This document shows positions 1 to 52,988 of a DNA stretch of 52,988 bases, piece by piece (position 1 is the first letter of the stretch; each line of letters starts with the position of its first letter). The translations under genes and the position numbers were made by a program. Below the pieces are notes generated by a model. It was not told where the DNA came from. It saw nothing but the letters and a program-made list of their open reading frames with translations, and ran no database searches. The DNA is from a virus (taxonomy: Duplodnaviria; Caudoviricetes). The DNA lies in the IMG/VR virus record IMGVR_UViG_3300046777_001138, positions 1 to 52,988 of that record. One strand, 5' to 3'.

Positions 1-127
1 TGTAAGGGAGTACCCGTTGGAGAACGACTACGGGTATGATGAGAAACCCTACGCTGAGGTTACCCCTGATACTCTCGGCGTGAATAATCTGGAATACACC
101 TTGCTTTTACAGAAAGCACAGGGTAAA
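1..127. repeat. Direct terminal repeat, copy 1 (probable circular-assembly overlap)
   Basis: Identical to 52862-52988; 127 nt matches a common assembler k-mer; an ORF reads through the junction. Confidence 0.95.
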
Positions 128-214
128 ACGGTACGAGAGGTGGCAAAGGCTCTACGGCGTAGTAGTAGCTGGGTCCATCGTGAACTGGTGAGGCTTAAGG
201 AGGTGCTGGTATAA
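1..214 (+). CDS. C-terminal part of a sigma70/ECF-like protein that starts at 52626 and crosses the origin (149 aa total)
   Basis: In frame with ATG 52626; region 4-like HTH GKTVREVAKALRRSSSWVHREL. Confidence 0.7.
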   Translation, partial: VREYPLENDYGYDEKPYAEVTPDTLGVNNLEYTLLLQKAQGKTVREVAKALRRSSSWVHRELVRLKEVLV

Positions 215-725: not shown

Positions 726-930
726 TCCACCATCCTATGAGAAGATCCAAGCGATAGGTAAACAGGTGTATGGCACGGATTGTTTCCGTACTACCCTGAA
801 TAATACCGCTGACCATGAGATCTACATCCCATCGTGTGACGATGAGGGATACATTACTGTCCCAGCGAAGGGACAACTGATTGTTATGAGGACACCGGAA
901 GGATATCGTAATCTGAAAGAAGGAGAATAG
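709..930 (+). CDS. Hypothetical protein
   Basis: GGAGG upstream of ATG 709 within track ORF 691..930. Confidence 0.6.
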   Translation: MDEIPDPPSYEKIQAIGKQVYGTDCFRTTLNNTADHEIYIPSCDDEGYITVPAKGQLIVMRTPEGYRNLKEGE

Positions 931-1493
931 TGATGATTAGTGAAGTGAAGCAGAATGACATTCGACCGATGACAGACGCTGAGAGAGATGCCATGGCTCT
1001 CCACATGAATGTAGCCTACAAGTTCATGCCTAGGAAGAAATACGATGAAGACCAGATGCAGGATACCTTGCTTCGCAATGTGCGAAACTGGATCAGGAAC
1101 AGACACAAGTGTCCTCAGATCAAAGATGTCACCTTCATGGCCAATTCCACGATGTATAACGCTGGGAGATCCAAGCGTCGTAACATCAGCACAATCCATA
1201 TTGACTTGTGCGTGTCATTAGATCGTGACTTGGTTAAAGGTGCGCCGTATGATGTAGCTGACTATCGAGAGCCTGAGGACAAAGGATTCAGGGATTGGTC
1301 TTATGTGACCAACTTCCTCAATGTCTTGACCCAGCGCCAACGGGATATCCTTGAGATGCGCCGACGAGGTGAAAGTCTTAGCTGCATCGCTGAGACATTC
1401 AGTCTGAGCAAGGAGAGGATCCGTCAAATAGAAACTAGGGCTATTGAACGGCTTCAGGTAGAGATTAACAAGGACATGTCCAAATGCAATTGA
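930..1493 (+). CDS. Sigma70-family-like protein (clear region 4)
   Basis: LTQRQRDILEMRRRGESLSCIAETFSLSKERIRQIETRAIERL matches the sigma70 region 4 pattern (S-R/K-ERIRQIE). Confidence 0.8.
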   Translation: MMISEVKQNDIRPMTDAERDAMALHMNVAYKFMPRKKYDEDQMQDTLLRNVRNWIRNRHKCPQIKDVTFMANSTMYNAGRSKRRNISTIHIDLCVSLDRDLVKGAPYDVADYREPEDKGFRDWSYVTNFLNVLTQRQRDILEMRRRGESLSCIAETFSLSKERIRQIETRAIERLQVEINKDMSKCN

Positions 1494-2020
1494 CTCCAAA
1501 CCAGACTCTTCTACACAAGAATGTAGCTCTGGTGTACAAACTCATGGGCAAATACGGGTTGAATAACCGGGAGGCTATGGGAGACAAAGGGCAATTCATT
1601 TGGCTGTGCATATGCAAGTATGTTGAAGGCTACAAGAAGGAAAGGAGTGCATTTGGTACATGGCTGGGATGGGCTGTGTGGTCAGCGGTAAAGGTCTACA
1701 ATAAACAGGTAGCCACACACGCTGACAGGTATAAATGCTTTGAGGACATGCTATTTGTCCATGACCGAGAGCATGAAGATTCTCAGCGGGATTATCTGGC
1801 CCACCAGAAGATCTTGGATACAATGGATAGAGTCTTGGTATCCAAGAAGGGAGGAGCATCACACAGGGAAGTGGTAAGGCTTTGCTGGGAGCAAGGGATG
1901 CCTTACAGGAAAGCAGCTAAGATTCTTGGTATTAGTGGGCAGAGGGCCCATAGGATCCTACAAGTATCAAGACAGAAGTTACAAGTAGAACTCAAGGAAA
2001 TGGAAGGAGAGTTGGTGTGA
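1484..2020 (+). CDS. Sigma70-family-like protein (regions 2 and 4)
   Basis: NVALVYKL...YKKERSAFGTWLGWAVWSAV resembles region 2; HREVVRLCWEQGMPYRKAAKILGISGQRA resembles region 4. Confidence 0.75.
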   Translation: MQLTPNQTLLHKNVALVYKLMGKYGLNNREAMGDKGQFIWLCICKYVEGYKKERSAFGTWLGWAVWSAVKVYNKQVATHADRYKCFEDMLFVHDREHEDSQRDYLAHQKILDTMDRVLVSKKGGASHREVVRLCWEQGMPYRKAAKILGISGQRAHRILQVSRQKLQVELKEMEGELV

Positions 2021-2172
2021 CAGACGAAGAGTTTGAGACGATAAAGAAACTCTACGGTAAATCAGACCGTATTGGTACACACTGGGCAGAGTGTTGGAAT
2101 GCACATGTGTACTGTGCAGTCTGTAAACTGATTAAGGAAGTTGAACGACTAAAGGAGGAACGAAATGGGTGA
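2017..2172 (+). CDS. Small hypothetical protein with H-x3-C-x3-H-x2-C motif (51 aa, not in ORF track)
   Basis: GTGA overlap, RBS GGAG; THWAECWNAHVYCAVC; fills the gap between neighbours. Confidence 0.6.
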   Translation: MTDEEFETIKKLYGKSDRIGTHWAECWNAHVYCAVCKLIKEVERLKEERNG

Positions 2173-5600: not shown

Positions 5601-6116
5601 ATGCTAATGAGGTATCTTACGGAAGAGGAAGCGTGTGAGTATCTTTATTTTGATCCCACTTCAAATTGTTTGCGTAGAAAACTGACTAAGAAATTGGCAT
5701 CAGAGTCCAATTCTTCGGCGGAGTTTTACCACAAATCGAGTGGCTACCTACATGTCAAGGTTGGTAATTGTAGATTTCAAGCCCATAGGCTTGTTTATTT
5801 AATTACCAAAGGCCCTATTCCGGATGGTATGGATGTAGACCATATTGACAGGGATCGGCGTAACAATGCGCCATACAATCTTCGTTTGGCGACCAAAGCA
5901 GAAAATAGTCTGAACAGGTCAAAGTACAAAAATAATACTTCTGGTTTTCCGGGAGTTAGGTGGTTTGCTAAGCTAAGCAAATGGATTGCATATATTTCTT
6001 TTGGAGGAAAAAGGTTTCACTTAGGTGTCTACACAGAACTTCAGGAAGCGGTTGATGCAAGAAAACTTGCAGAAGTCATTTTCTTTGGTGATTTTAGACC
6101 CATACATTCCAAGTGA
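5601..6116 (+). CDS. HNH homing endonuclease with C-terminal AP2-like domain
   Basis: AHRLVY...VDHIDRDRRNNAPYNLR; NNTSGFPGVRW...WIAYI...HLG. Confidence 0.9.
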   Translation: MLMRYLTEEEACEYLYFDPTSNCLRRKLTKKLASESNSSAEFYHKSSGYLHVKVGNCRFQAHRLVYLITKGPIPDGMDVDHIDRDRRNNAPYNLRLATKAENSLNRSKYKNNTSGFPGVRWFAKLSKWIAYISFGGKRFHLGVYTELQEAVDARKLAEVIFFGDFRPIHSK

Positions 6117-6925
6117 AACGCAAGGTCAACCCATACAGCGAATTTTTAGTGCCATGTTCCTCCATCGACAGGAGGATCTATGTCACTTCGTCGAATAATT
6201 TCCATGGGTTGATCAGTATGCTCGGCGCTGCTTGGGGCATCGCTGAGGAAGATCGTCAGGATCTGGCTGAGACTCTACTAGAAGAGATCTTCTTCTGTGG
6301 GTACGACTGGTATGACGACTTCTACCCGATCTTGTCAAAGATCAGGGTGATTGATATTAACGATTGGCTTGCTGGAACACGACCGTCCATTTTGTTCCCA
6401 AGCTATGATCCAGCAGTGTACTTTAATGGCCTGTCTGGAGGAGTCAATTATCGTCGGCGTTGGTGTCTGGATCAGTCGCAGTCCATGCGTATTGATCAGG
6501 TTGCTGAAATGGTTATTGCCCTATGGGGTGATGACTGTGTAGCCGATATGGGTGCTTACTGTGGATGGGATGCAATCCTAGTCCATAACCATGAGCGCCG
6601 GGTAATCATTGATGTTGCGATATTCCCTTGGAACTTGACCACAGGGGCTATACGCAAGGTCCACATAGCAGCACGGAAGATTCGTGCCATGCAGGGTATC
6701 CACAAAGCGTATGGGCTAGTACCCATTCAAATAGTTGATACCACCAACGGAATCTACTGGTCGCCGGCCCATGACATTGCGATAATGGATTCCGGGAAGA
6801 TCCTGATTACGGCATCAGGGTTACCTAGTGATGAAGAGGAATCGCTGGGAATAGAACTGAGTGAACTTCGTCCTCTTGGTGATTTGAACAGGTATTTTAA
6901 GGAGTTGAAGAATGTCAATGTTTAA
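6113..6925 (+). CDS. Hypothetical protein
   Basis: 270-aa ORF coupled to both neighbours. Confidence 0.75.
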   Translation: MKRKVNPYSEFLVPCSSIDRRIYVTSSNNFHGLISMLGAAWGIAEEDRQDLAETLLEEIFFCGYDWYDDFYPILSKIRVIDINDWLAGTRPSILFPSYDPAVYFNGLSGGVNYRRRWCLDQSQSMRIDQVAEMVIALWGDDCVADMGAYCGWDAILVHNHERRVIIDVAIFPWNLTTGAIRKVHIAARKIRAMQGIHKAYGLVPIQIVDTTNGIYWSPAHDIAIMDSGKILITASGLPSDEEESLGIELSELRPLGDLNRYFKELKNVNV

Positions 6926-13697: not shown

Positions 13698-13901
13698 ATG
13701 ACAGAGCGTGAAATGGGATTGAGACAGTTTGACTACCCTTGGTATGCTGACGGCGAATCAATAATGGATCGCCGTGGTAATGTTGTGGCCGTGGTAAGTA
13801 ATAGTAGATTCGCAAACTTTATCGTTCATTGTGTCAAGAACGGAAAAGATGCAACCATGGACTCTTGGGCGAAAGCTGGGATTGAATATGAGCTGGCTTA
13901 A
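13698..13901 (+). CDS. Small hypothetical protein
   Basis: Fills the gap between polA and the next gene. Confidence 0.6.
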   Translation: MTEREMGLRQFDYPWYADGESIMDRRGNVVAVVSNSRFANFIVHCVKNGKDATMDSWAKAGIEYELA

Positions 13902-14490
13902 CGCATCAGACGCTGACAAACCTACCCCGAAGGACTGGGCTATCGTCCAAGGGATTGCCACCCAAATCCATGACATCCTCCAGCGTTCAGATGATCCCAA
14001 CTGGAACCTAAAGTATGACAGGATCTTTGACCGTATCATGGACCGGATGCTATCCGGCGATCAAATCTGGTGGGCTAATGCTCAGGTAGTCCATCTTCTC
14101 AGCGAAGACGAGATCGCTAGGAAGTCTATCTCGTGTGAGTTCCAAGTATCTAGGAACCGCTGGAAGAACTTGAAGGTCGAGGACAAGATTGATGTTCGTC
14201 AGGCTCTCTTAGATGTGGTAGTAAACGAGGATTGCACCCTGACACCGATGGAAGGATTCATCCTAATCTGTCGGTATGTTCATGGCGTATCCATGTCAGC
14301 CATTGGTGAGATGCTCGGGTATGACCGACAGTTTATCTCATCAGCACTTGACGCCATCGCTGAGAAACTTATACTTGAGATGGGTGAGAGGGTGGATGTT
14401 CATGTAGCATCCGAGCCTGAGCCAATAGTGATGAAAGAAGTGAAGTTTGATTCTCGGTTTGTTCCCGGGGCTCATAGGAGGGCTCGGTAA
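13888..14490 (+). CDS. Sigma70 region 4-like HTH protein (possible late-transcription factor)
   Basis: LTPMEGFILICRYVHGVSMSAIGEMLGYDRQFISSALDAIAEKL. Confidence 0.65.
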   Translation: MSWLNASDADKPTPKDWAIVQGIATQIHDILQRSDDPNWNLKYDRIFDRIMDRMLSGDQIWWANAQVVHLLSEDEIARKSISCEFQVSRNRWKNLKVEDKIDVRQALLDVVVNEDCTLTPMEGFILICRYVHGVSMSAIGEMLGYDRQFISSALDAIAEKLILEMGERVDVHVASEPEPIVMKEVKFDSRFVPGAHRRAR

Positions 14491-19023: not shown

Positions 19024-19578
19024 GTGGGAACACCTCTTAGACCAGACGAACTTGCTGATGTAACAGCGACTACAGCCGACTATCTAGTCGTAACACCCAC
19101 GGGAGGGCCAGCAGGACGCTCTACAATCGCAGATGTCCTTGCCCTTGGCTCAGGAGGTGTGTCAAGCCTTAACAGCCTTACAGGGGCACTCAGTATCGTT
19201 GCAGGGACCAATGTGACAGTGACCCCTGCTGGGTCAAACATTACTATCGCTGCCTCTGGTGGTTCCTCAGCGCCGACTGTAAATGCGCAGACTGGCACGA
19301 CCTACACCCTTGTTCTCGGCGATGCAAACAATAGGGTAACGCTGAGTAATACATCCGGTATCACGGTAACTATTCCACCGAACAGTTCTGTAGCCTTTCC
19401 TGTCGGTACTGGAGTAGATCTTGTTCAATTGAACACTGGGCAGGTTACTGTAGCACCGGGATCAGGTGTTACTTTAAATGGTACACCCGGGTTGAAACTA
19501 CGGGCTAGGTACTCAGGATGTAGCATCATTCAGACTGCTGCGAACACATGGGTACTTGTGGGGGATTCCACTCCATGA
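19024..19578 (+). CDS. Tail fibre / fibre-like protein
   Basis: GVSSLNSLTGALSIVAGTNVT and AQTGTTYTLVLGDA...VTIPPNSSVAFPVG...WVLVGD, modules typical of phage fibres. Confidence 0.75.
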   Translation: MGTPLRPDELADVTATTADYLVVTPTGGPAGRSTIADVLALGSGGVSSLNSLTGALSIVAGTNVTVTPAGSNITIAASGGSSAPTVNAQTGTTYTLVLGDANNRVTLSNTSGITVTIPPNSSVAFPVGTGVDLVQLNTGQVTVAPGSGVTLNGTPGLKLRARYSGCSIIQTAANTWVLVGDSTP

Positions 19579-20592: not shown

Positions 20593-20892
20593 CTAAGAGA
20601 TGTAGTTGGCCAAGATCTTCAGCGCCAGTTTGATTGCTACAGAAATGACGATACCAGAGATCAAGCCTTGCTTCATCTCGTTGGCTTCGATCAGCGCAAG
20701 AATAGCTTCCTCTTCAGAAACATTCTCTGCACCTACAAGTTTCTCGGTAGGAATGAATTTGTTCAGGCCATAGCCTGCAACATTCCAAGCTACATGAACA
20801 AGGTCTGCTACAGGAACATCCTTGCCACGAACCTTGTCCAGAAGAAGCATCAAACCTTCTGTAGGTAATTCAACAGGATACGGTACTAACAT
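20593..20892 (-). CDS. Small membrane-associated protein (lysis-cassette candidate)
   Basis: C-terminal hydrophobic helix GLISGIVISVAIKLALKIL. Confidence 0.55.
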   Translation of the reverse strand: MLVPYPVELPTEGLMLLLDKVRGKDVPVADLVHVAWNVAGYGLNKFIPTEKLVGAENVSEEEAILALIEANEMKQGLISGIVISVAIKLALKILANYIS

Positions 20893-20902
20893 TATAAGCC
20901 CC

Positions 20903-24903: not shown

Positions 24904-24915
24904 ACACTATAAGCA
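24904..24915 (-). promoter_or_regulatory. Candidate late-promoter motif TGCTTATAGTGT
   Basis: Identical 12-mer at 36951-36962; both copies are intergenic. Confidence 0.55.
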
Positions 24916-28956: not shown

Positions 28957-29495
28957 GGATAATTATTTAGGAATGGATTCTTTGGCGTAATCTTGTTACC
29001 CGTTGTATCCACCCATCCACTATAAACAGGATCTGAACTACCGATATCAAACGACCAATCTATTTTTGCAGAAACACTAATTCCATACGAAGTAGTGATA
29101 GAGTTGGCATAGTCCATCTTGGACACAATGACTGGAATTTTACACATCAACACATCACTATCCAATGACAATCGAAGTTTCCACCATAACGGGCATCCTA
29201 GATATAACCCAGGATTTCCATTACGAGGTACAAGCCCATTCAGGATTATTTCTCCTGCGGGCATTGTAGGATACCAACCTTCACCCCTTGAACTAGGCAT
29301 GTTGCGTTCAAGCATAGTCATGCTCAGCGCAATCGTCCAGTCCTTGAATGTCATGAAGTTATTATCAAGCGTTGGCTCAGGAAACGCTAATGGGTCCGAC
29401 TCATTGAAAATCTGGCTACCACACGGCTTGGGGTACTCACGGGTTTCCATGAGTACCGAGCCTTGTTTGCCAGACCACATCGTCGGAGAAGCCAT
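28929..29495 (-). CDS. Tail-tube-like paralogue 3
   Basis: WSGKQGSVL...KDWTI, shared with the two upstream genes. Confidence 0.5.
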   Translation of the reverse strand: MASPTMWSGKQGSVLMETREYPKPCGSQIFNESDPLAFPEPTLDNNFMTFKDWTIALSMTMLERNMPSSRGEGWYPTMPAGEIILNGLVPRNGNPGLYLGCPLWWKLRLSLDSDVLMCKIPVIVSKMDYANSITTSYGISVSAKIDWSFDIGSSDPVYSGWVDTTGNKITPKNPFLNNYPWTLKGHTS

Positions 29496-32271: not shown

Positions 32272-32293
32272 TCACCTCATTATAAGCCTTGTG

Positions 32294-32327
32294 GAAAGAA
32301 TCCCCCGGGTTTTTTAGGCCCGGGGAT
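32294..32327 (-). terminator. Probable intrinsic terminator after the major capsid gene
   Basis: ATCCCCGGG...CCCGGGGGAT stem followed by TCTTT on the - strand. Confidence 0.65.
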
Positions 32328-32344
32328 AAGCCTACCTGCTACGA

Positions 32345-33715
32345 TTAGGACGCAGCAGAGGTCTGTTTGGCGGTGTGCCAAGGTGACAACACAGCGGGAA
32401 TACCTTTTTCAGCACCGAAGTAGCTGGCAACGAGTCCATTGTCAACCATGCTGTAGCTGGCAGGTGCAGCCTGTTGGATGGTAAGCGGGAACGCTTGCAT
32501 GTACGCAAATGCTTTCGTGGTATCGGTGAGGAACCAAGTCGCAGTTGCCTGAGCCGTGGTGTATCCACCAGTGACCAACTCTTGCTCAAGCAAGGGGCTG
32601 GTAAGGACCTTGTACGAACCGAAGTTCGACACAGGGTTACCCGCACCGCTGTTGACATACAGAGGGTTAGCCGAAGACTGAGCGCCACCAGTACGGAACT
32701 GGGTGGTGAGCGAGTCAAGGATAAGGTTGGCGGTAGCCAGCTTGCCGGGACACACAACCAGAGTGGTTGGGTTGACCAAGATGCGCTTGCCAGTATCAGG
32801 ATCGGTAAACCGACTGAAAGCAAGGTAAGCAGTCTGGATCGAGGTCCAGTCGTAGAGAGGGTTTGCGTCGGAAACAACAAGGTTACCAGCGTAACCGAGG
32901 GTGTTACCAGCAGCAGCGACGTAAGTGTTATACGCAGTACCCTTCCAATTGAAGGCATTGCTTACACCAGAGAACATCTGAAGCTGCTCAAGTTCCTTAC
33001 GGTAACCGAGTTCTTCACCGATGCTCATGGCATTGGAGAGGATATCGCCAGTCAAATCGTAGAAAACAGCTTCCTTGGTCACATCAATGGCCAAAGCGTT
33101 TTCACGAAGTTCCGGAGTTTGGATCCAGCGTTCCCCGAACTGAGTGCGAGGATGAGGCTGACCGGGTTGACGACGAGCAGCACGGTCACCAATGGGGTTG
33201 AGCCCAATGATTTTCTGACCGTTCAGCTTGGTAGGAATGGTCTTCATCAACTGGTCACCGATGAACGATGGGTTATTAAACCCTTCGAGCATCTTGACTT
33301 CGATCAAACCACCGGTCAGGATCGAGTAGGCGTTGATGTTGATGAACGCTGAGGGATCGAGACCGATACCCGTCGATTCAAAGATCGCATTCTGATTGCC
33401 ACCGCTGGCAGCAGTAATGTGGTTCTTCGCCCGGACATATTTGGCGTAAGTCTCACCGTTGATAGGGTCCAGCATGGCCAGACCTTCAGATCCAAGAATA
33501 CTTTCAGCTACCTCACGGAGACTGAAATTATCAGCAAACAGCTGACGATTAGGATCCAGCTTGCGGTTACCATTGGCATCTTTGTGATCGTTGCCGTTGG
33601 CATCGCACAATCCAAGCCCATGGCGCATTTGGGTAACAAAACTTTGTACCCCTTTCCCGCCACTACGGCTGCAACTTTCGTAAGCATCCCGAAGAACAAA
33701 CTTATTGATAGACAT
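32345..33715 (-). CDS. Major capsid protein
   Basis: 456 aa; strong RBS; downstream of protease and decoration genes; LVVCPG and WFL motifs of the Mu gpT/HK97 type. Confidence 0.85.
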   Translation of the reverse strand: MSINKFVLRDAYESCSRSGGKGVQSFVTQMRHGLGLCDANGNDHKDANGNRKLDPNRQLFADNFSLREVAESILGSEGLAMLDPINGETYAKYVRAKNHITAASGGNQNAIFESTGIGLDPSAFININAYSILTGGLIEVKMLEGFNNPSFIGDQLMKTIPTKLNGQKIIGLNPIGDRAARRQPGQPHPRTQFGERWIQTPELRENALAIDVTKEAVFYDLTGDILSNAMSIGEELGYRKELEQLQMFSGVSNAFNWKGTAYNTYVAAAGNTLGYAGNLVVSDANPLYDWTSIQTAYLAFSRFTDPDTGKRILVNPTTLVVCPGKLATANLILDSLTTQFRTGGAQSSANPLYVNSGAGNPVSNFGSYKVLTSPLLEQELVTGGYTTAQATATWFLTDTTKAFAYMQAFPLTIQQAAPASYSMVDNGLVASYFGAEKGIPAVLSPWHTAKQTSAAS

Positions 33716-35317: not shown

Positions 35318-36931
35318 CTATTCTTTGTTTTGTTCACCCGGTTTGGAGTCTTTCTTTTTATCTTCATTTGCTTTATCGGCAGATTGTTGTAATATGACAG
35401 GCTCGATAATCTCTGCCGGTTTACCATCTCCGCCGGGAATAACACGGGCCTGATTAGCCATAGGAGGTACAGGATCTTCAACAGCTTCTTGGCGACGATT
35501 AGCAAGTTCTTCTTCGTAGTCCCAATCATTTTCAGAACAAATACGATGCTTGGACTTGATACCCATCTCAACATATTCTTTGTTCATGCGTGCTTCAGCA
35601 CCCTTGTCACGAACCTCAATCGAAGGCGCAGTAAGAACAAGTTCTACCTCGTCCTCCCACTCCAACGGAATAAGCCCAGCCAACGCAGCGTTCTTCATAG
35701 CTGCCATAATGATCGACTCGAAGAATTCCCCGTAGTCGTCCTGCATCGAGGTACAAGTACGCAGGAATGGGGATTCCGCCGTGAGAGACGACGCATTGCT
35801 CATCTCACCACTTTTACCGGATACAACCCATTCAGGAGCATTCCAGCGACTACCAGCACACCTAAGCAGACCCTGAAGCACTTCAAGGTGCGCAGTAACA
35901 TTTCGCCCACCGGGAGGCTCAATGTACTTGGTATTTGTCGTCATATCCAAGATCGCACCCGGGGTAACCGTCTGGTAACCATCAAATGCGCTTGGCATCA
36001 AGTTATTCGGAAGATTTGGAGCGTAGGGATACCCCGATTTCTGGGTGTCAAGGAAGTCGTCAATCTGGGCCGCTGTCGATCCGTCATGCTCCCGAATAGC
36101 TGCAATAGCTGCCTGAATCGCTGATCCCTCACCAACATTACGGGTAAGTTTCAACGAGAGATTGAACATTTCCGCCGTAGAAAACGCAAACGCAGGTTCA
36201 CCACGCTTCATCTTCTCGGTGCAGAACATCTTGATATGCTTGATCTTGTCCGCTTCAACAAACGTATCTGGTCCTACAGACCCATTAGGGCCATTGTATC
36301 GGACGTTGTATCCCTTAATGTTCTGAGTATCTATAACGTCAGTTTTAATACCGAACGACCACTCAAAGAAAGTGGCATCATATGGCATACATACCAATTC
36401 AGGCTCAATAGAACGGAATTGAAGATATCCGTCTTCGCTAGGAAACAACCGCACAAAGTCTTCACCATCAACTTGAGACCGTTCAAAACACTCTTTTTGG
36501 AACTTGATAAACTTCGTCTTCTTCATCCAGTCCTTAAGGAAGTTTCTACATTGCTTAACCAACTCAGCGTTTGAACCAATAAAATGTGGCTTAAATCCCT
36601 TGCCAATAACATACCCACGGATAGCCTGAATAGTACCGCTAGCGTTGGAATTTGTCTTGTAAATAAAACGACTTACCGCACGAAGCCTGCCAAGATCTAG
36701 CTCGTTACGGACAAATGGGTAGTCCGCACCATAGGCCCTGTCTATAGGATTGTTTACGCCGTAAGGACTGAATCCAATACCTAAATACTGGCTTGACCCA
36801 TACATCATGGAGTCGCCTTGCCAGTCCATAGGCTGAGCAGGGAAACCCCATGACTCACGGACAGCCTGCTTACGAATTGGCTGAGTCGGCGAGAACATCT
36901 TTTTCAGCCAATCGAACATAAGGATCTCCAA
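35318..36931 (-). CDS. Portal protein (lambda-like)
   Basis: Follows TerL; VDGEDFVR, IKHIK...KRGEP. Confidence 0.88.
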   Translation of the reverse strand: MEILMFDWLKKMFSPTQPIRKQAVRESWGFPAQPMDWQGDSMMYGSSQYLGIGFSPYGVNNPIDRAYGADYPFVRNELDLGRLRAVSRFIYKTNSNASGTIQAIRGYVIGKGFKPHFIGSNAELVKQCRNFLKDWMKKTKFIKFQKECFERSQVDGEDFVRLFPSEDGYLQFRSIEPELVCMPYDATFFEWSFGIKTDVIDTQNIKGYNVRYNGPNGSVGPDTFVEADKIKHIKMFCTEKMKRGEPAFAFSTAEMFNLSLKLTRNVGEGSAIQAAIAAIREHDGSTAAQIDDFLDTQKSGYPYAPNLPNNLMPSAFDGYQTVTPGAILDMTTNTKYIEPPGGRNVTAHLEVLQGLLRCAGSRWNAPEWVVSGKSGEMSNASSLTAESPFLRTCTSMQDDYGEFFESIIMAAMKNAALAGLIPLEWEDEVELVLTAPSIEVRDKGAEARMNKEYVEMGIKSKHRICSENDWDYEEELANRRQEAVEDPVPPMANQARVIPGGDGKPAEIIEPVILQQSADKANEDKKKDSKPGEQNKE

Positions 36932-36950: not shown

Positions 36951-36962
36951 ACACTATAAGCA
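36951..36962 (-). promoter_or_regulatory. Candidate late-promoter motif TGCTTATAGTGT
   Basis: In the TerL-portal gap; identical to 24904-24915. Confidence 0.55.
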
Positions 36963-36977
36963 CAAGATTTCAAATAG

Positions 36978-38471
36978 TTAGGTCTTTAGACCCTTAGCGC
37001 CCGGTTTAATTTTACCATTACATAATGATATCAAAGTCCTTAAAGCTAGTTCTAAACTATCCGGTCCATCGTCGTATCTAGCTGAAGGGAACATTTTTAG
37101 TTGGTCTACCAATAAAGCACCATATTGGTTTTTGACCACACGAATTCTTTTTTGCTCCAAAAATGGACCTAACCGCCGAATTCGTATTTCCTTCTTGATA
37201 ACATTATGCACTCCTTGCGTTACAAGCCTCATGTTTAACAAATCGCTTTTTTTCGACAGGTTGTTTAACAAAAGGCTCTGGAACGAGTTTGACTCGCATG
37301 TTATCATTGACGGATTGTACTTCTGTGACATTTCGATAACGGTGTCTACAATAGCTTCGGCGCTCATCCGGCTGATTATGGGGTTTGCTAAAACCGTATT
37401 ATCTCGTAATCGAGCCAGCAATGTAATAGCGCAATAATCTCCAAGTTTAGCTTCGTTGCCCTTGGAAGGGTCAATTGCGATTACACTCTCTACAATTTCT
37501 GACCTTTGGGGCCATTTATCTTCCCACCATATGTGATCTGCGAATAAATCTACCGGCCATTCAGTAGCACCCGGAGCAGTTGGGTTCTGTTGATATAAAG
37601 CCTCAAACTCTCTCGTACCAAGGCTCGTCTTTATCTGCTCAAGCGCCTGAGCATCATACTTGGTAGGCCATAGAGCCTCTCCAATGGCCCTAGGATCGTC
37701 TTTATGGTTCTCACCCGTAGCAATCGCTGGCAGACACAGATACTCGAACTGGTCAGCGTTCTTCTCCATCAGCTGGGTCTGAAGAACAGCGCCGACAAGA
37801 TCCTCCGGGTTCCACCGGGTCATCACGATCAGGATCCGGGCATCCTTTTCAGCACGAGTTCTAAAAGTGGATTTATACCAATTTAGTATGTTTTCCCTGA
37901 TTGTAGGTGAGTCAGCGTCAGCACGGTTCCTGATCGGATCGTCCACGATCAGCCACTGACCGCCCATACCAGTAATCGAACCACCAACACCGGCTGAACG
38001 ATAAAAGCCTCTTTTTCCAACCATTTCAAACAAGTCAGAAGTTCGTGTATATCTTTCTGACACAGCCCCACGGCCGCCCTGACCTTCTGCTAATCTAGAA
38101 TCAGGGAATAAACGCTTGAATTCTTCTGAACATATATATTTCTGCACATCGTTGTTTATTCTACTAGACAATTCGCTGGAGTAGGAACAGGCCATTACCC
38201 CAGTATCCGGGTTCCTACCAAGGATGTAAGAAGGCAAAAGACGACTGATAAGTTCGGATTTACCATGCCGTGGAGGCATTGACACACATAAACGCCGAAG
38301 ATGGTTAGGATCTTCCAGCGGAAGGAACATCCGTTCGATATTGTCAATGATTACTTGATGATGCCACGAACATTCGAATTGTGGAAATACATACTCAGCG
38401 TAATGTTTGAAGCTAGTCCTAGCGTTTTCACGCTTGGCTAGTTCGTTGATCATCATGTCCAGTTCGTTCAT
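36978..38471 (-). CDS. terL: Terminase large subunit
   Basis: MPPRHGKSEL, GGSITGMG, IVDDP, MTRW, ALYQQNP, AIDPS, DDGPDSL. Confidence 0.95.
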   Translation of the reverse strand: MNELDMMINELAKRENARTSFKHYAEYVFPQFECSWHHQVIIDNIERMFLPLEDPNHLRRLCVSMPPRHGKSELISRLLPSYILGRNPDTGVMACSYSSELSSRINNDVQKYICSEEFKRLFPDSRLAEGQGGRGAVSERYTRTSDLFEMVGKRGFYRSAGVGGSITGMGGQWLIVDDPIRNRADADSPTIRENILNWYKSTFRTRAEKDARILIVMTRWNPEDLVGAVLQTQLMEKNADQFEYLCLPAIATGENHKDDPRAIGEALWPTKYDAQALEQIKTSLGTREFEALYQQNPTAPGATEWPVDLFADHIWWEDKWPQRSEIVESVIAIDPSKGNEAKLGDYCAITLLARLRDNTVLANPIISRMSAEAIVDTVIEMSQKYNPSMITCESNSFQSLLLNNLSKKSDLLNMRLVTQGVHNVIKKEIRIRRLGPFLEQKRIRVVKNQYGALLVDQLKMFPSARYDDGPDSLELALRTLISLCNGKIKPGAKGLKT

Positions 38472-39159: not shown

Positions 39160-39798
39160 CTAACTCTCCACTTTAGGTTCCACATCGGCCAACATTAGCC
39201 TAACATCCCGTTCCGTGATCGGATCATCCACACCCAACCCAAACTTCTTCATAACTTGTTTCATGTCTAAAAGCCATGGATCCAGCCCTGAAAGGGCCAG
39301 TTTCTGTAGTAATTCGACCAAAAGTCGTGTCACTACCTCGTTTTCACCCATGTCCTTGCCAGAATCAAGCAATGATTCAACATACCACGATTGGAAGATT
39401 CTGGTCCCCTTTTCGTAGGTAGATTCCTCAATATCAATGAAATCTTCCACATAAATCGGTGAATTGATGCTTCCAGACCACTCAGCCTCAATACCATGGG
39501 AATGTAAAGCCGAAACAGTATTTTTCATCACATCTTTGAGTAGTTTAGCTATTGCACCCTTCTCGTATTTCGCTGCGGTACGGGTAGCAATTGACAAGAA
39601 GATTGGTAACCTTCCCTCATCTGCCATTTCGTCTAGCCCACGCTCTGTAAGATACACTCCCACATAATAATCACACTTGTACTTAACAAGACGCTTACGA
39701 GCTTGGTGACTAAATTCTGAATTTGCTTCCGCTATGTCCATACCCAGAATCCCATGGTAAAATTCTGGGCCAAATATTTTCTTAATCCTTTCAGGCAT
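39160..39798 (-). CDS. Hypothetical protein
   Basis: Probable start 39798, overlapping the HNH stop region. Confidence 0.7.
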   Translation of the reverse strand: MPERIKKIFGPEFYHGILGMDIAEANSEFSHQARKRLVKYKCDYYVGVYLTERGLDEMADEGRLPIFLSIATRTAAKYEKGAIAKLLKDVMKNTVSALHSHGIEAEWSGSINSPIYVEDFIDIEESTYEKGTRIFQSWYVESLLDSGKDMGENEVVTRLLVELLQKLALSGLDPWLLDMKQVMKKFGLGVDDPITERDVRLMLADVEPKVES

Positions 39799-40327
39799 CG
39801 TGACGCAATTTGGCATTGTAGGCATAAGAAAAGTCTCCGTGCAGTTTAGAAGCAGCCTCACAATACGCTTTATAAGCCTCTTCAGCAGTATAAAAGGCCC
39901 CCAAATATTTCTGCTTCTGTTGTACACAAATACTTGCCGTCCACTTGTTTTTATCCCTATTCCAGCTAACTCCCTTGAACCCAGATGTATTATCAGACCG
40001 TTTCCCTTTGTTACAGCAATTTTCCGACGCTGTACTTAACCGCAAGTTTTCTATACGGTCATTAGAATGATCCCGATTTATATGGTCTATTTGCTTTCCT
40101 TCTTTAATTTCACCATTATGCAACATCCATATAATCCTAGCCCTTGATGTATATCTACCGTTTAGTCTAATATACCAGCGCCCAGATCTTTTGTGCAAAG
40201 TACCGGCTATAGATCCTGCTGCGGCAACTACTCTATTTGCAAATCCACCGTTTATTCTGTCTATTTTCCAGCGAATAACACCCGGTTCCGACTCATAAAA
40301 TAAATCATGTACGCTTAGACTGTTCAT
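39791..40327 (-). CDS. HNH homing endonuclease with AP2 domain
   Basis: IDHINRDHSNDRIENLR; NTSGFKGVSW...YLGAF...AYCEAA. Confidence 0.92.
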   Translation of the reverse strand: MNSLSVHDLFYESEPGVIRWKIDRINGGFANRVVAAAGSIAGTLHKRSGRWYIRLNGRYTSRARIIWMLHNGEIKEGKQIDHINRDHSNDRIENLRLSTASENCCNKGKRSDNTSGFKGVSWNRDKNKWTASICVQQKQKYLGAFYTAEEAYKAYCEAASKLHGDFSYAYNAKLRHDA

Positions 40328-40398
40328 ATCAATCCTCCACGAAAGGGTTGGTCAAAGCCCGAGCAGTTGACGCTGCGTCGGGCACTTTCATTATAAGC
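40328..40398 (-). promoter_or_regulatory. Structured 5' leader of HNH gene, copy A
   Basis: TATAAT, a bulged hairpin and an RBS-sequestering hairpin; homologous to 41847-41918. Confidence 0.65.
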
Positions 40399-41336: not shown

Positions 41337-41846
41337 TTACAGACAAGCAAACTCACCGTGGTAATCTAACACGGCGTCACAATATGCTGCATAGGCTAAC
41401 CACTTATTTTCATACGAACCTATCGTTTTTCGTTTACCCTCAAACTGCATTTGCGCACGCCATTTACATTTTGATTGCTCATAACTTACACCTTTCAACC
41501 CAGATGTGTTGTTCTTGTGCTTCCGCCGATTTGCTTGATTCTGTTTTCGTGACGCCAATCTAATGTTGTCTATGCTATCATTAAGCGTATCGTGGTTCTT
41601 GTGGTCTATTTCCATTCCGTCAGGAATTGGTCCGTTGTGCATTTCCCAAATTACTCTACCCCTAGTTACATTCTCCCCATCAACATACATTATCCAGTAA
41701 TTTTTACGCTTGTCTAAGTGTCCAGCTATATCACCAGCCCTTGCCATCAGCCTACTGTAGACAATACCAGAGTACCTATCAGTTTTAAATCTAAGAATCC
41801 CGGGTTCTGACTCGACAAAAAGCTCATTCAGTCTTAAACTGTTCAT
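41337..41846 (-). CDS. HNH homing endonuclease with AP2 domain (paralogue of 39791..40327)
   Basis: IDHKNHDTLNDSIDNIR; NNTSGLKGVS; shared start MNSL...ESEPG. Confidence 0.92.
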   Translation of the reverse strand: MNSLRLNELFVESEPGILRFKTDRYSGIVYSRLMARAGDIAGHLDKRKNYWIMYVDGENVTRGRVIWEMHNGPIPDGMEIDHKNHDTLNDSIDNIRLASRKQNQANRRKHKNNTSGLKGVSYEQSKCKWRAQMQFEGKRKTIGSYENKWLAYAAYCDAVLDYHGEFACL

Positions 41847-41918
41847 ATCAATCCTCTCAGAAAGGGTTGGTCATGGCCCCAAGTAGCGACAACTACTGTG
41901 GGGCTTCTTTCATAATAG
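41847..41918 (-). promoter_or_regulatory. Structured 5' leader of HNH gene, copy B
   Basis: Homologous to 40328-40398, with compensatory stem changes. Confidence 0.65.
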
Positions 41919-42175
41919 AACACCTAGAATACAATACAACTTGGTTCCTAGAAAAATGTCACTTGAGTTCCATTTTTCGTCGTCACTCAGCGCCTTTGGG
42001 CGCTGGATGAGGTTGGTTATCTCGAACTTCGTTCTCGTAACCTTATGTTTTTAATGTAATTATAAACAGAAATTGTAGCTTTGTCACCGGTAAATCCAAT
42101 AATTCTGGAAATATTCCCAAAGTAGTTACTAGTTGTCTCACTGCGTTCGACCGCTGAGGAAAGACAGAAGACACA

Positions 42176-42204
42176 TTGACTTCCTTGGGTTCTAGGTCAA
42201 TAAT
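42176..42204 (+). promoter_or_regulatory. Sigma70-type promoter candidate
   Basis: TTGACT-17 nt-AATAAT at the start of the + strand block. Confidence 0.5.
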
Positions 42205-45407: not shown

Positions 45408-45452
45408 CTAGTTTCCCTTACCCAATAACGACTTATGGCAATCTTTGAAACA
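45408..45452. repeat. 45-bp dispersed intergenic repeat, copy 1
   Basis: 36/45 identical to 49889-49933; core ATAACGACTTA. Confidence 0.75.
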
Positions 45453-49888: not shown

Positions 49889-49933
49889 CTATTTTCCCTT
49901 GGTACATAACGACTTAGGGAAATCTGTGAAACA
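49889..49933. repeat. 45-bp dispersed intergenic repeat, copy 2
   Basis: 36/45 identical to 45408-45452. Confidence 0.75.
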
Positions 49934-52069: not shown

Positions 52070-52636
52070 ATGGATCCCAGTGAACTACCCCACAAACTGA
52101 TTTTCTCCAGTATCAACCGAGCTAACGCTATGCGTGGTAGCTACGCCTTAGTCCTTACCGAGGATGATCACCAGACGCTAGCAACCATGCTGATCGGGAT
52201 GTATTCAAGGAAGTACAACCCGAAACTAGGTAAGCCTAGCACCTTCCTTACCAAGTCTGCTAGGTTAGCTCTCAAGGCTCTAGCCACTACCCGCCAGAGA
52301 AGGTCTAAGCGACCTGCGATGATCCAGCCTGTACTTTATGCGCTGGATAAAGAATCCCGCCCAGAGTCTGAACAGGCAGAATCCTGTATTGAGGATCTGG
52401 ATCGACAGAAGGCTCTACAGTCCGTCAGGGATGCACTGGAGTGGCTGGAACCTAGGAAAGCAGAAGCAATCAGGCTTAGGGACTTTGAGGGTCAACGCTA
52501 CGCAACTATTGCAGCAACCATGGGGTTGAGTAAAGCTAGGGTAGCTGCACTGAGATCGGAAGGGATGGAGGAACTGAAGTTCTTCCTCAGCGGGGCTACT
52601 TGGGACGCACTTGGAGGTGACCCTAATGCTGACTAA
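52070..52636 (+). CDS. Sigma70/ECF-like protein
   Basis: YNPKLGKPSTFL (region 2-like); ALEWLEPRKAEAIRLRDFEGQRYATIAATMGLSKARV (region 4). Confidence 0.8.
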   Translation: MDPSELPHKLIFSSINRANAMRGSYALVLTEDDHQTLATMLIGMYSRKYNPKLGKPSTFLTKSARLALKALATTRQRRSKRPAMIQPVLYALDKESRPESEQAESCIEDLDRQKALQSVRDALEWLEPRKAEAIRLRDFEGQRYATIAATMGLSKARVAALRSEGMEELKFFLSGATWDALGGDPNAD

Positions 52637-52988
52637 CACAGACCGAAAGGAGTTGGAATCAGTCATGCCTGTTGTGTTCAACAGGATGGCTAAGCTAAAG
52701 CCTAAATACAACCTGACAGACGATCAGGCTCAGGACGCTTATGTCAGTCTGGTTGAGCGTTGGATCAAAAGGAAGAACAAAACGGCTTGTAGGCCTACTA
52801 CAGCAGCAGCAAATGCCATTGGCTGGAGTTGCATAGATGTGGTCAGGGTAAAGCCTGAACCTGTAAGGGAGTACCCGTTGGAGAACGACTACGGGTATGA
52901 TGAGAAACCCTACGCTGAGGTTACCCCTGATACTCTCGGCGTGAATAATCTGGAATACACCTTGCTTTTACAGAAAGCACAGGGTAAA
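52626..52988 (+). CDS. N-terminal part of the sigma70/ECF-like protein crossing the origin (continues to 214)
   Basis: RBS GGAGGTG; MLTNTDRKE...DDQAQDAYVSLVERW (region 2.2-like); no stop before the window end. Confidence 0.7.
   Translation, partial: MLTNTDRKELESVMPVVFNRMAKLKPKYNLTDDQAQDAYVSLVERWIKRKNKTACRPTTAAANAIGWSCIDVVRVKPEPVREYPLENDYGYDEKPYAEVTPDTLGVNNLEYTLLLQKAQGK
52862..52988. repeat. Direct terminal repeat, copy 2
   Basis: Identical to 1-127. Confidence 0.95.

Follow-up and report, generated by a model that had tools for sequence, protein, structure and literature searches.

Four clustered sigma factor-like genes and a more diverged fifth in an uncultured aquatic tailed phage with a genome of 53 kb

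The 52,988-nucleotide (nt) virus record IMGVR_UViG_3300046777_001138 of the IMG/VR database, analysed here over its whole length and referred to as the window, carries four sigma factor-like genes, named sigA to sigD, within one 2.8-kb cluster, and a more doubtful fifth, sigE, at a distance from them. The source of the window is an uncultured aquatic tailed phage whose whole genome of about 52.9 kb is present. Judged from sequence, four sigma genes in 53 kb are certain or near-certain, and the presence of four clustered genes together with a fifth suggests that the host RNA polymerase is reprogrammed in several steps. We assign a probability of about 0.6 to the reading that sigA to sigD encode working sigma factors that redirect the core RNA polymerase of the host to promoters of the phage once an early phase, served by the host sigma factor, is over. 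This reading is founded on family membership, gene order, conservation, purifying selection and a promoter-like motif.

All five genes had been called in a sequence-only reading of the window, and all five open reading frames (ORFs) are present on the positive strand at the coordinates given there. The first tandem pair consists of sigA (52070..52636, 188 amino acids (aa)) and sigB (52626..52988 continuing at 1..214, 149 aa), which overlap by 11 nt, and the second of sigC (930..1493, 187 aa) and sigD (1484..2020, 178 aa), which overlap by 10 nt; the genes of each pair are described as translationally coupled. Including sigE (13888..14490, 200 aa), the four or five genes use about 5% of the 53-kb genome. 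Sequence comparison identified a direct terminal repeat, in which bases 1-127 are identical to bases 52862-52988, and the database likewise assigns the record to the class with direct terminal repeats and rates it 100% complete; the window therefore corresponds to a circularly assembled phage genome of 52,861 bp. The wrapping of sigB across the assembly junction is real, as the terminal bases are identical and the intact 149-aa product was found as a database protein (P0013); its ATG start at 52626 is conserved in 5/5 relatives, and the 3′ part of the gene holds the C-terminal helix-turn-helix (HTH). The same circular assembly qualifies the claim that four of the genes are clustered around the origin: the cluster stands, but the "origin" is the arbitrary cut of the assembly and no replication origin.

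Family membership was examined with the NCBIfam model TIGR02937, which describes the sigma-2 and sigma-4 domains together over 165 positions and has a curated cut-off of 42.9 bits. A six-frame scan of the window with this model gave five matches at E ≤ 10, which are exactly sigA to sigE. Two pass the cut-off and thereby show a sigma-2 domain alongside sigma-4: sigD, an ECF-like (extracytoplasmic function-like) sigma factor and the best sigma match of all (50.6 bits over positions 5-165 of 165, with 61.1 and 60.8 bits in its orthologues), and the likewise ECF-like sigA (46.6 bits over positions 41-162). The sigC product falls just under the cut-off (36.8 bits over positions 15-164 of 165, with 41.0 and 38.8 bits in its orthologues), and the divergent sigB lies further below it (24.5 bits, E = 1.7e-5, positions 7-161 of 165, measured on P0013), the sigma-2 half of the sigB orthologues being matched on its own at E values of 2.5e-6 to 6e-6. 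The matches thus extend beyond generic HTH families, with two proteins passing the two-domain model and two more aligned to it over both domains.

The claim that a region 4 HTH is present in all five proteins is clearly borne out for three, in which the Pfam family Sigma70_r4 scores above its gathering score, a result repeated in a six-frame scan: sigC (46.4 bits, E = 2.8e-12), sigA (28.5 bits, with Sigma70_r4_2 also above its gathering score at 31.3 bits) and sigD (27.8 bits). For sigB, Pfam gives generic HTH families only, and the match of sigE is below threshold. The PHROG sigma families likewise match sigA, sigC and sigD, that for sigC being phrog_1740, "RNA polymerase sigma factor" (E = 2.6e-7). 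A profile search of the PDB with sigC retrieved region 4 of SigB and RpoS (E = 6e-7), and the sigD family gave only weak region 4 matches there. Sigma70_ECF scores above its gathering score in two of the three full-length sigA orthologues (P0015 and P0016), and the sigA N-terminus, MDPSELPHKL, is unchanged in 5/5 sequences.

The sequence-only reading had also seen degenerate region 2 motifs in several of the proteins, which is borne out by the two-domain model, though not by the Pfam region 2 family itself as far as the window proteins are concerned. Among orthologues, Sigma70_r2 is found at E values of 1.7e-4 and 9.2e-4 for sigD and only at 0.03-0.06 for sigC. In a joint alignment, an acidic D/E-x-x-Q motif followed by a T-F/W motif, which we take to be regions 2.2 and 2.3, stands in register in sigA to sigD, and both motifs are missing from sigE. 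The five proteins are compact, lacking regions 1.1 and 3, and the matches cover most of each of them; the build predicted for sigA to sigD, at 149-188 aa, is that of group-4 (ECF-like) sigma factors, in which a linker joins the sigma-2 to the sigma-4 domain.

The five proteins are only distantly related to one another. The closest pairs are sigB and sigC, with 21% identity over 142 aa, and sigA and sigC, with 29% over 52 aa of the HTH. When family profiles are compared with hhalign, only those of sigB and sigC align almost end to end (134 columns, probability 90%, E = 1.6e-6), while the sigB/sigD, sigE/sigD and sigE/sigA families share the HTH only. A recent tandem duplication was considered and rejected, as the best identity among the five is only 21-29%. 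The low mutual identity indicates that they are not recent duplicates, and the five sigma-like genes are more probably old paralogues or separate acquisitions.

Relatives of the sigma genes occur only in uncultured-phage data. Searches with sigD, sigB and sigA gave 3, 6 and 5 matches, all of phage lineage, including two relatives of sigD (from contigs 51.8 and 51.5 kb long, with 48-49% identity), five of sigB (58-60% identity to the window protein) and four of sigA (61-71% identity). No bacterial relatives of sigA were found in one-per-species bacterial genomes, nor of sigA, sigB or sigD in a word-based protein search, and no sigD relatives were found in a collection of isolated phages; the exclusively phage-lineage relatives argue against recent capture of a host sigma factor. 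The window DNA polymerase has relatives at no more than 28% identity among isolated phages.

The relatives that were fetched are fragments of 1.4-14 kb (IMG/VR, metagenome scan), and in these the gene order is conserved as sigB, two small ORFs, sigC, sigD, a further small ORF, an ORF of 139-148 aa and ThyX, with the order of the sigma genes kept in L015, L016 and L017. Many of the contigs that carry members of the sigma orthologue clusters are 48-52 kb long, and among the shorter ones several lengths recur between orthologues of two or three different sigma genes, which is a proxy for their co-occurrence and not proof of it. The reads of the window come from freshwater metagenomes and one relative from a marine metagenome, and the sigma gene set appears to be conserved across the lineage seen in these freshwater and marine data. 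Between L015 and L017, sigC is 86% identical and the adjacent sigD 54%, a sign of mosaicism that suggests exchange of sigD alleles.

Among close relatives (L016 against L017), the ratio of nonsynonymous to synonymous substitution rates (dN/dS) is 0.09 for sigD, 0.18-0.19 for sigC and 0.22 for a 51-aa ORF that follows sigD, and by this measure all three are under purifying selection. The sequence-only reading had named a multi-step cascade, anti-sigma decoys and RNA polymerase-sequestering mimics as possibilities, and its interpretation is partly supported. The dN/dS values bear on an alternative of the decoy kind, namely that some copies (most plausibly one per overlapping pair, or sigB and sigE) are competitors or decoys that occupy the core RNA polymerase or a partner sigma factor and so shut off host or early transcription. 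The translational coupling of the two pairs would suit such an arrangement, bacterial ECF operons being known to keep their regulator at the coupled second position, as would the very short length and low TIGR02937 score of sigB and the lack of a separate anti-sigma family among the neighbours scanned. However, the second members of both pairs, sigB and sigD, appear to retain both domains; sigD is the top sigma match and is strongly constrained; and the region 4.2-type signature S-x-x-R-V/I is preserved in the sigA, sigC and sigD families. Decoys are considered unlikely.

The reading of sigA to sigD as working sigma factors also fits their genomic surroundings. The genes of the positive strand form a block running from about 42.2 kb across the junction to about 20.2 kb, and those of the negative strand a second block, which starts at about 41.85 kb, ends at 20.2 kb and includes the genes for the portal protein (35318-36931) and the large subunit of the terminase (36978-38471). 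The positive-strand block begins with many small, early-type ORFs lacking a family and continues with the sigma cluster and then with genes of nucleotide metabolism and replication, among them ThyX (a search with the window gene returned thymidylate synthase relatives), dCTP deaminase, HNH, a Sak4-like protein, a primase/helicase and a family-A DNA polymerase. The longest ORF of the window encodes 668 aa, short for the usual single-subunit RNA polymerase, and a phage-encoded RNA polymerase is thus unlikely. The T7-type RNA polymerase model PF00940 gave no match in the window, though the control of that scan was silent as well, so that the argument for the lack of a polymerase of its own rests on ORF lengths. 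No transfer RNA genes were found in the window.

A candidate late promoter class was recognised in the structural block. The motif GCTTATARTG has five exact sites before structural genes against 0.12 expected, and its relaxed form GYTTATARTG has six against 0.35 expected; none of 100 shuffles reached either count. All six sites, located by motif scan, lie on the negative strand between 20.9 and 40.4 kb, in the structural block only, at 20890..20899, 24905..24914, 29018..29027 (GTTTATAGTG), 32278..32287, 36952..36961 and 40389..40398, and no conserved -35 element is visible. The fifth site, between the terminase and portal genes, forms a conserved island in an otherwise diverged spacer when aligned with four relatives. 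The relaxed motif also occurs six times in four related structural-module fragments, always on the terminase strand, with no occurrences in reversed-pattern controls and none in one replication-module fragment. GYTTATARTG looks like a late promoter class of the -10-only kind, comparable to those of phages phiEco32 and 7-11 (PMC4331800). The fourth site lies just past a hairpin: on the negative strand, a GC-rich, terminator-like hairpin with a T-run (32290-32330) follows a 456-aa gene (32345-33715), and the GYTTATARTG site comes immediately after it.

Where the negative-strand block gives way to the positive-strand block, a divergent pair of sigma-70-type promoter-like sequences was found at 42059..42204, with GTGACA-17-TATAAT on the negative strand (11/12 positions) and TTGACT-17-AATAAT on the positive strand (10/12). 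The number of sigma-70-like sites in the scanned divergence region is not above that in shuffles (30 against 25.9). Two intergenic copies of an element of the form TTCCCTT-N-ATAACGACTTAKGS-N-TGAAACA also occur on the positive strand of the early region, at 45425-45438 and 49906-49919, and a search with ATAACGACTTAKGS gave no further sites beyond these two.

In the proposed programme, early genes would be read by the host sigma-70 holoenzyme, after which sigA to sigD would take the place of the host sigma factor on the host core RNA polymerase and lead it to phage promoters. Separate sigma factors would serve separate gene classes, and the -10-only GYTTATARTG sites before the structural genes would mark one candidate class. 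Binding to RNA polymerase, the temporal order of the steps and the assignment of individual sigma factors to promoters are predicted in this scheme. Phage sigma factors can also act on host networks and be dispensable for lytic growth, as documented in PMC9429907, and the sigma factors of this phage might likewise be auxiliary regulators of host regulons, similar to the sporulation-like sigma factors of Bacillus phages. This is very unlikely here: with no bacterial relatives found for sigA, sigB and sigD, the proteins do not look like copies of host sigma factors, and their conserved early-to-middle position in the gene array, together with the conserved phage late motif, fits a programme of the phage itself.

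The fifth gene, sigE, encodes a sigma-4-like HTH protein and lies directly after the DNA polymerase gene on the positive strand. Its start at 13888 is supported by the orthologue in L012, which is 59% identical and likewise directly follows a DNA polymerase gene, whose product is 80% identical to that of the window; apart from this orthologue, only two true relatives were found among 1.84 billion representatives. The sequence-only reading had classed the gene as sigma70-like. Its region 4-like C-terminus is present, though below threshold (Sigma70_r4 at 15.4-17.4 bits against a gathering score of 24.1; TIGR02937 at 16.3 bits over region 4 only), and region 2 gives no sequence-level signal in Pfam, TIGR02937 or family-profile comparisons, which makes for a weaker case than the title of that reading implied. 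Two further features of sigE were observed: a conserved tail of about 35 aa past the HTH (14388-14490), ending in K-F-D-x-R-F/Y-x-P-G-x-H/R-R-R-x-R, and a conserved motif in mid-protein, E-F-Q-V/I-S-R/K-N-R-W. The odds are about even between a very diverged sigma factor and a sigma-4-type regulator or activator, and a link of sigE to replication, suggested by its position beside the DNA polymerase gene, is a guess.

A serious alternative, somewhat short of an even chance, is that sigE and, less likely, sigB are ordinary HTH regulators with a sigma-4 or LuxR-type domain, so that the true count of sigma genes would be three or four. The sub-threshold region 4 of sigE, the failure of its relatives P0005 and P0006 to match any NCBIfam model, the restriction of its hhalign ties with sigD and sigA to the HTH, and its lack of the D-x-x-Q and T-F/W motifs all favour this alternative. 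Structure models, which cover sigB and sigE as the two doubtful proteins, add that the C-terminal domain of sigB fits LuxR-type regulators (VIA Z 7.4-7.7) as well as it fits sigma-4 (Z 7.2-7.5).

Other results from the same models speak for sigma factors. The top Foldseek rows for both proteins are full-length sigma chains, mostly ECF, at E ≥ 0.06; for sigE, sigma chains fill the first 14 rows (13 ECF and one SigA), with alignments of about 160-180 columns, and 10/10 rows of an Atlas structure search are sigma clusters, with template modelling (TM) scores of 0.32-0.50. With VIA, residues 6-80 of sigE align to sigma-2 domains, with Z 7.1 for that of SigR (root-mean-square deviation 3.6, 75 residues aligned) and Z 6.4 for that of SigC, and residues 98-170 to the sigma-4 domains of SigD, SigF and SigR (Z 6.8-7.2). 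Unrelated helical bundles reach the same Z as the sigma-2 matches, however, and the fold evidence for a sigma-2-like N-terminal domain in sigE is within noise. For sigB, the alignment of TIGR02937 over both domains and the match of the sigma-2 half in its orthologues argue against a plain regulator. The sigB model is better defined at residues 100-149 (predicted local distance difference test score (pLDDT) 82-87) than in its N-terminal domain (pLDDT 34-67). Since the models are of low confidence and were built from alignments of 6 (sigB) and 4 (sigE) rows, the fold matches serve as leads only.

Several observations weigh against the reading of these proteins as a set of working sigma factors acting through promoters of their own. 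Pfam Sigma70_r2 matches none of the five window proteins at E ≤ 1 and was not found in a six-frame scan either. The sigE family aligns with the sigD and sigA families at a probability of only 3-4%, over the HTH, and the sigB and sigE family profiles retrieve no sigma chain from the PDB by sequence. Both structure models are poor, with a mean pLDDT of 61.9 for sigB and 56.9 for sigE, and all fold matches are weak, with Foldseek E values of at least 0.06 and VIA Z values of at most 8.0, a level common for helical models. On the side of the promoters, the exact motif GCTTATARTG is present in none of the four relatives, which have only the relaxed form in common; GYTTATARTG has a TATAAT-like core that the host sigma-70 holoenzyme might read unaided; at some of its sites the called start codon is only 4-13 nt away; and k-mer scans of 21 intergenic stretches yielded no second or third promoter class.

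The 51-aa ORF with the H-x3-C-x3-H-x2-C motif (2017..2172, positive strand) overlaps the stop of sigD by 4 nt and has no Pfam family. It is kept in L015, L016 and L017, with H22, C26 and H30 invariant in 4/4 rows and the final cysteine present in the 3/3 rows that reach it, the fourth row ending earlier; the histidines and cysteines may form a possible zinc site. By its position after sigD, the ORF occupies the place expected for an anti-sigma gene. A complex prediction for sigD and the 51-aa product (score 0.01, mark 0.32) speaks neither for nor against their pairing, and none of the five neighbouring small ORFs scanned for an anti-sigma factor has a Pfam family at E ≤ 0.001. The three small positive-strand ORFs that separate the two sigma pairs (214-519, 516-725 and 691-930) are also without a Pfam family; the first and third of them have orthologues in L017 and L015, where their order is retained.

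Several further features of the genome were observed. A third HNH gene lies at 5601-6116. On the negative strand, the genes at 39791-40327 and 41337-41846 form a paralogous pair with a shared repeat of 104 nt (40257-40360 and 41776-41879, 73% identical) that spans a hairpin, GACCAACCCTTTC, a ribosome-binding site and the first codons; the HNH_3 and AP2 domains of the first paralogue identify it as homing endonuclease-like. The 10-mer CGCTGAGGAA has 11 exact copies, on the positive strand at 6241, 8578, 12115, 15628 and 42152 and on the negative strand at 19272, 21383, 48305, 49862, 51125 and 52592. At up to one mismatch there are 23 copies against 2.67 expected, a count reached by 0/100 shuffles. 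The copies lie mainly within coding DNA and are oriented blockwise, with nothing conserved outside the 10-mer, and CGCTGAGGAA is also present in the relatives L012, L016 and L017. It may be a polar or Chi-like site, or the site of a regulator.

The takeover of host RNA polymerase by a phage sigma factor is well known, and it is the number and compactness of the genes described here that stand out. SPO1-type phages have genomes of about 130-150 kb. According to the sequence-only reading, phages with sigma genes have one or a few of them. This agrees with a survey that covered 4,350 reference phage genomes: 86.6% of them lacked a sigma gene, 11.7% carried one, 1.1% carried two and 0.7% carried three (PMC9429907). 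As three is the maximum in that survey, the four certain or near-certain sigma genes of the window exceed its record, and full-text literature searches found no prior report of a phage with at least four. The nearest precedents for a cascade are SPO1, with gp28 followed by gp33/gp34, and SP10, in which early transcription depends on host sigma-A and phage sigma factors then replace it for the middle and late classes (PMC13401047; PMC9429907). SPO1-type phages are larger and have up to three sigma genes, whereas the 53-kb genome described here has four or five, of which four form a single 2.8-kb cluster of two overlapping pairs, each gene apparently encoding both domains.

A second likeness is to phage phiEco32 and Salmonella phage 7-11, in which, as PMC4331800 describes, a small diverged sigma factor reads short, conserved, low-copy middle and late motifs, which were searched at a length of about 9 bp, that of an extended -10 element. 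In the same account, the structural genes of these phages have late promoters of their own and the early genes lie on host sigma-70 promoters (PMC4331800). Those phages carry one sigma factor plus an anti-sigma factor, in contrast to the four or five sigma factors here and the lack of a recognised anti-sigma homologue among the scanned neighbours. Bacterial group-4 (ECF) sigma factors are likewise proteins of 150-190 aa that have two domains and lack regions 1.1 and 3, and sigA and sigD pass the corresponding TIGR02937 model; the window proteins differ from them in having no recognisable cognate anti-sigma factor and no close bacterial relatives found here, and no promoter of the ECF type was found, none having been looked for. 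The late promoters of phage T4 are of the -10 type only, without a -35 element. The late system of that phage consists of gp55 with gp33 and the sliding clamp. The position of sigE after the DNA polymerase gene recalls the coupling of T4 late transcription to replication (PMC2988020), a parallel that is conjecture here; no homology to gp55 or gp33 was seen, no search aimed at those families having been made, and no clamp gene was identified in the window.

A bolder extension of the proposed programme, tentative and unlikely as a whole, would see in this widespread aquatic phage lineage of about 50 kb a four- or five-tier programme run on host RNA polymerase with sigma factors of its own, in which the two coupled pairs act together or control each other, with a sigma-like partner in the place of the anti-sigma factor, and sigE ties late transcription from the -10-only GYTTATARTG sites to replication. 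Such a lineage would have the densest sigma complement known in any virus.

Phage sigma factors are a textbook route to the takeover of host transcription, and the studied cases involve one to three of them, mostly in phages two to three times larger than this one. Counts of phage sigma factors based on the Pfam region 2 family under-report them, as 0/5 would have been found that way here. If the reading of sigA to sigD as working sigma factors is true, the phage would offer a compact natural model for the number of sigma-promoter pairs that can work orthogonally on a single core RNA polymerase, and it would supply new small, mutually divergent sigma factors, a type of protein that serves synthetic circuits as orthogonal switches.

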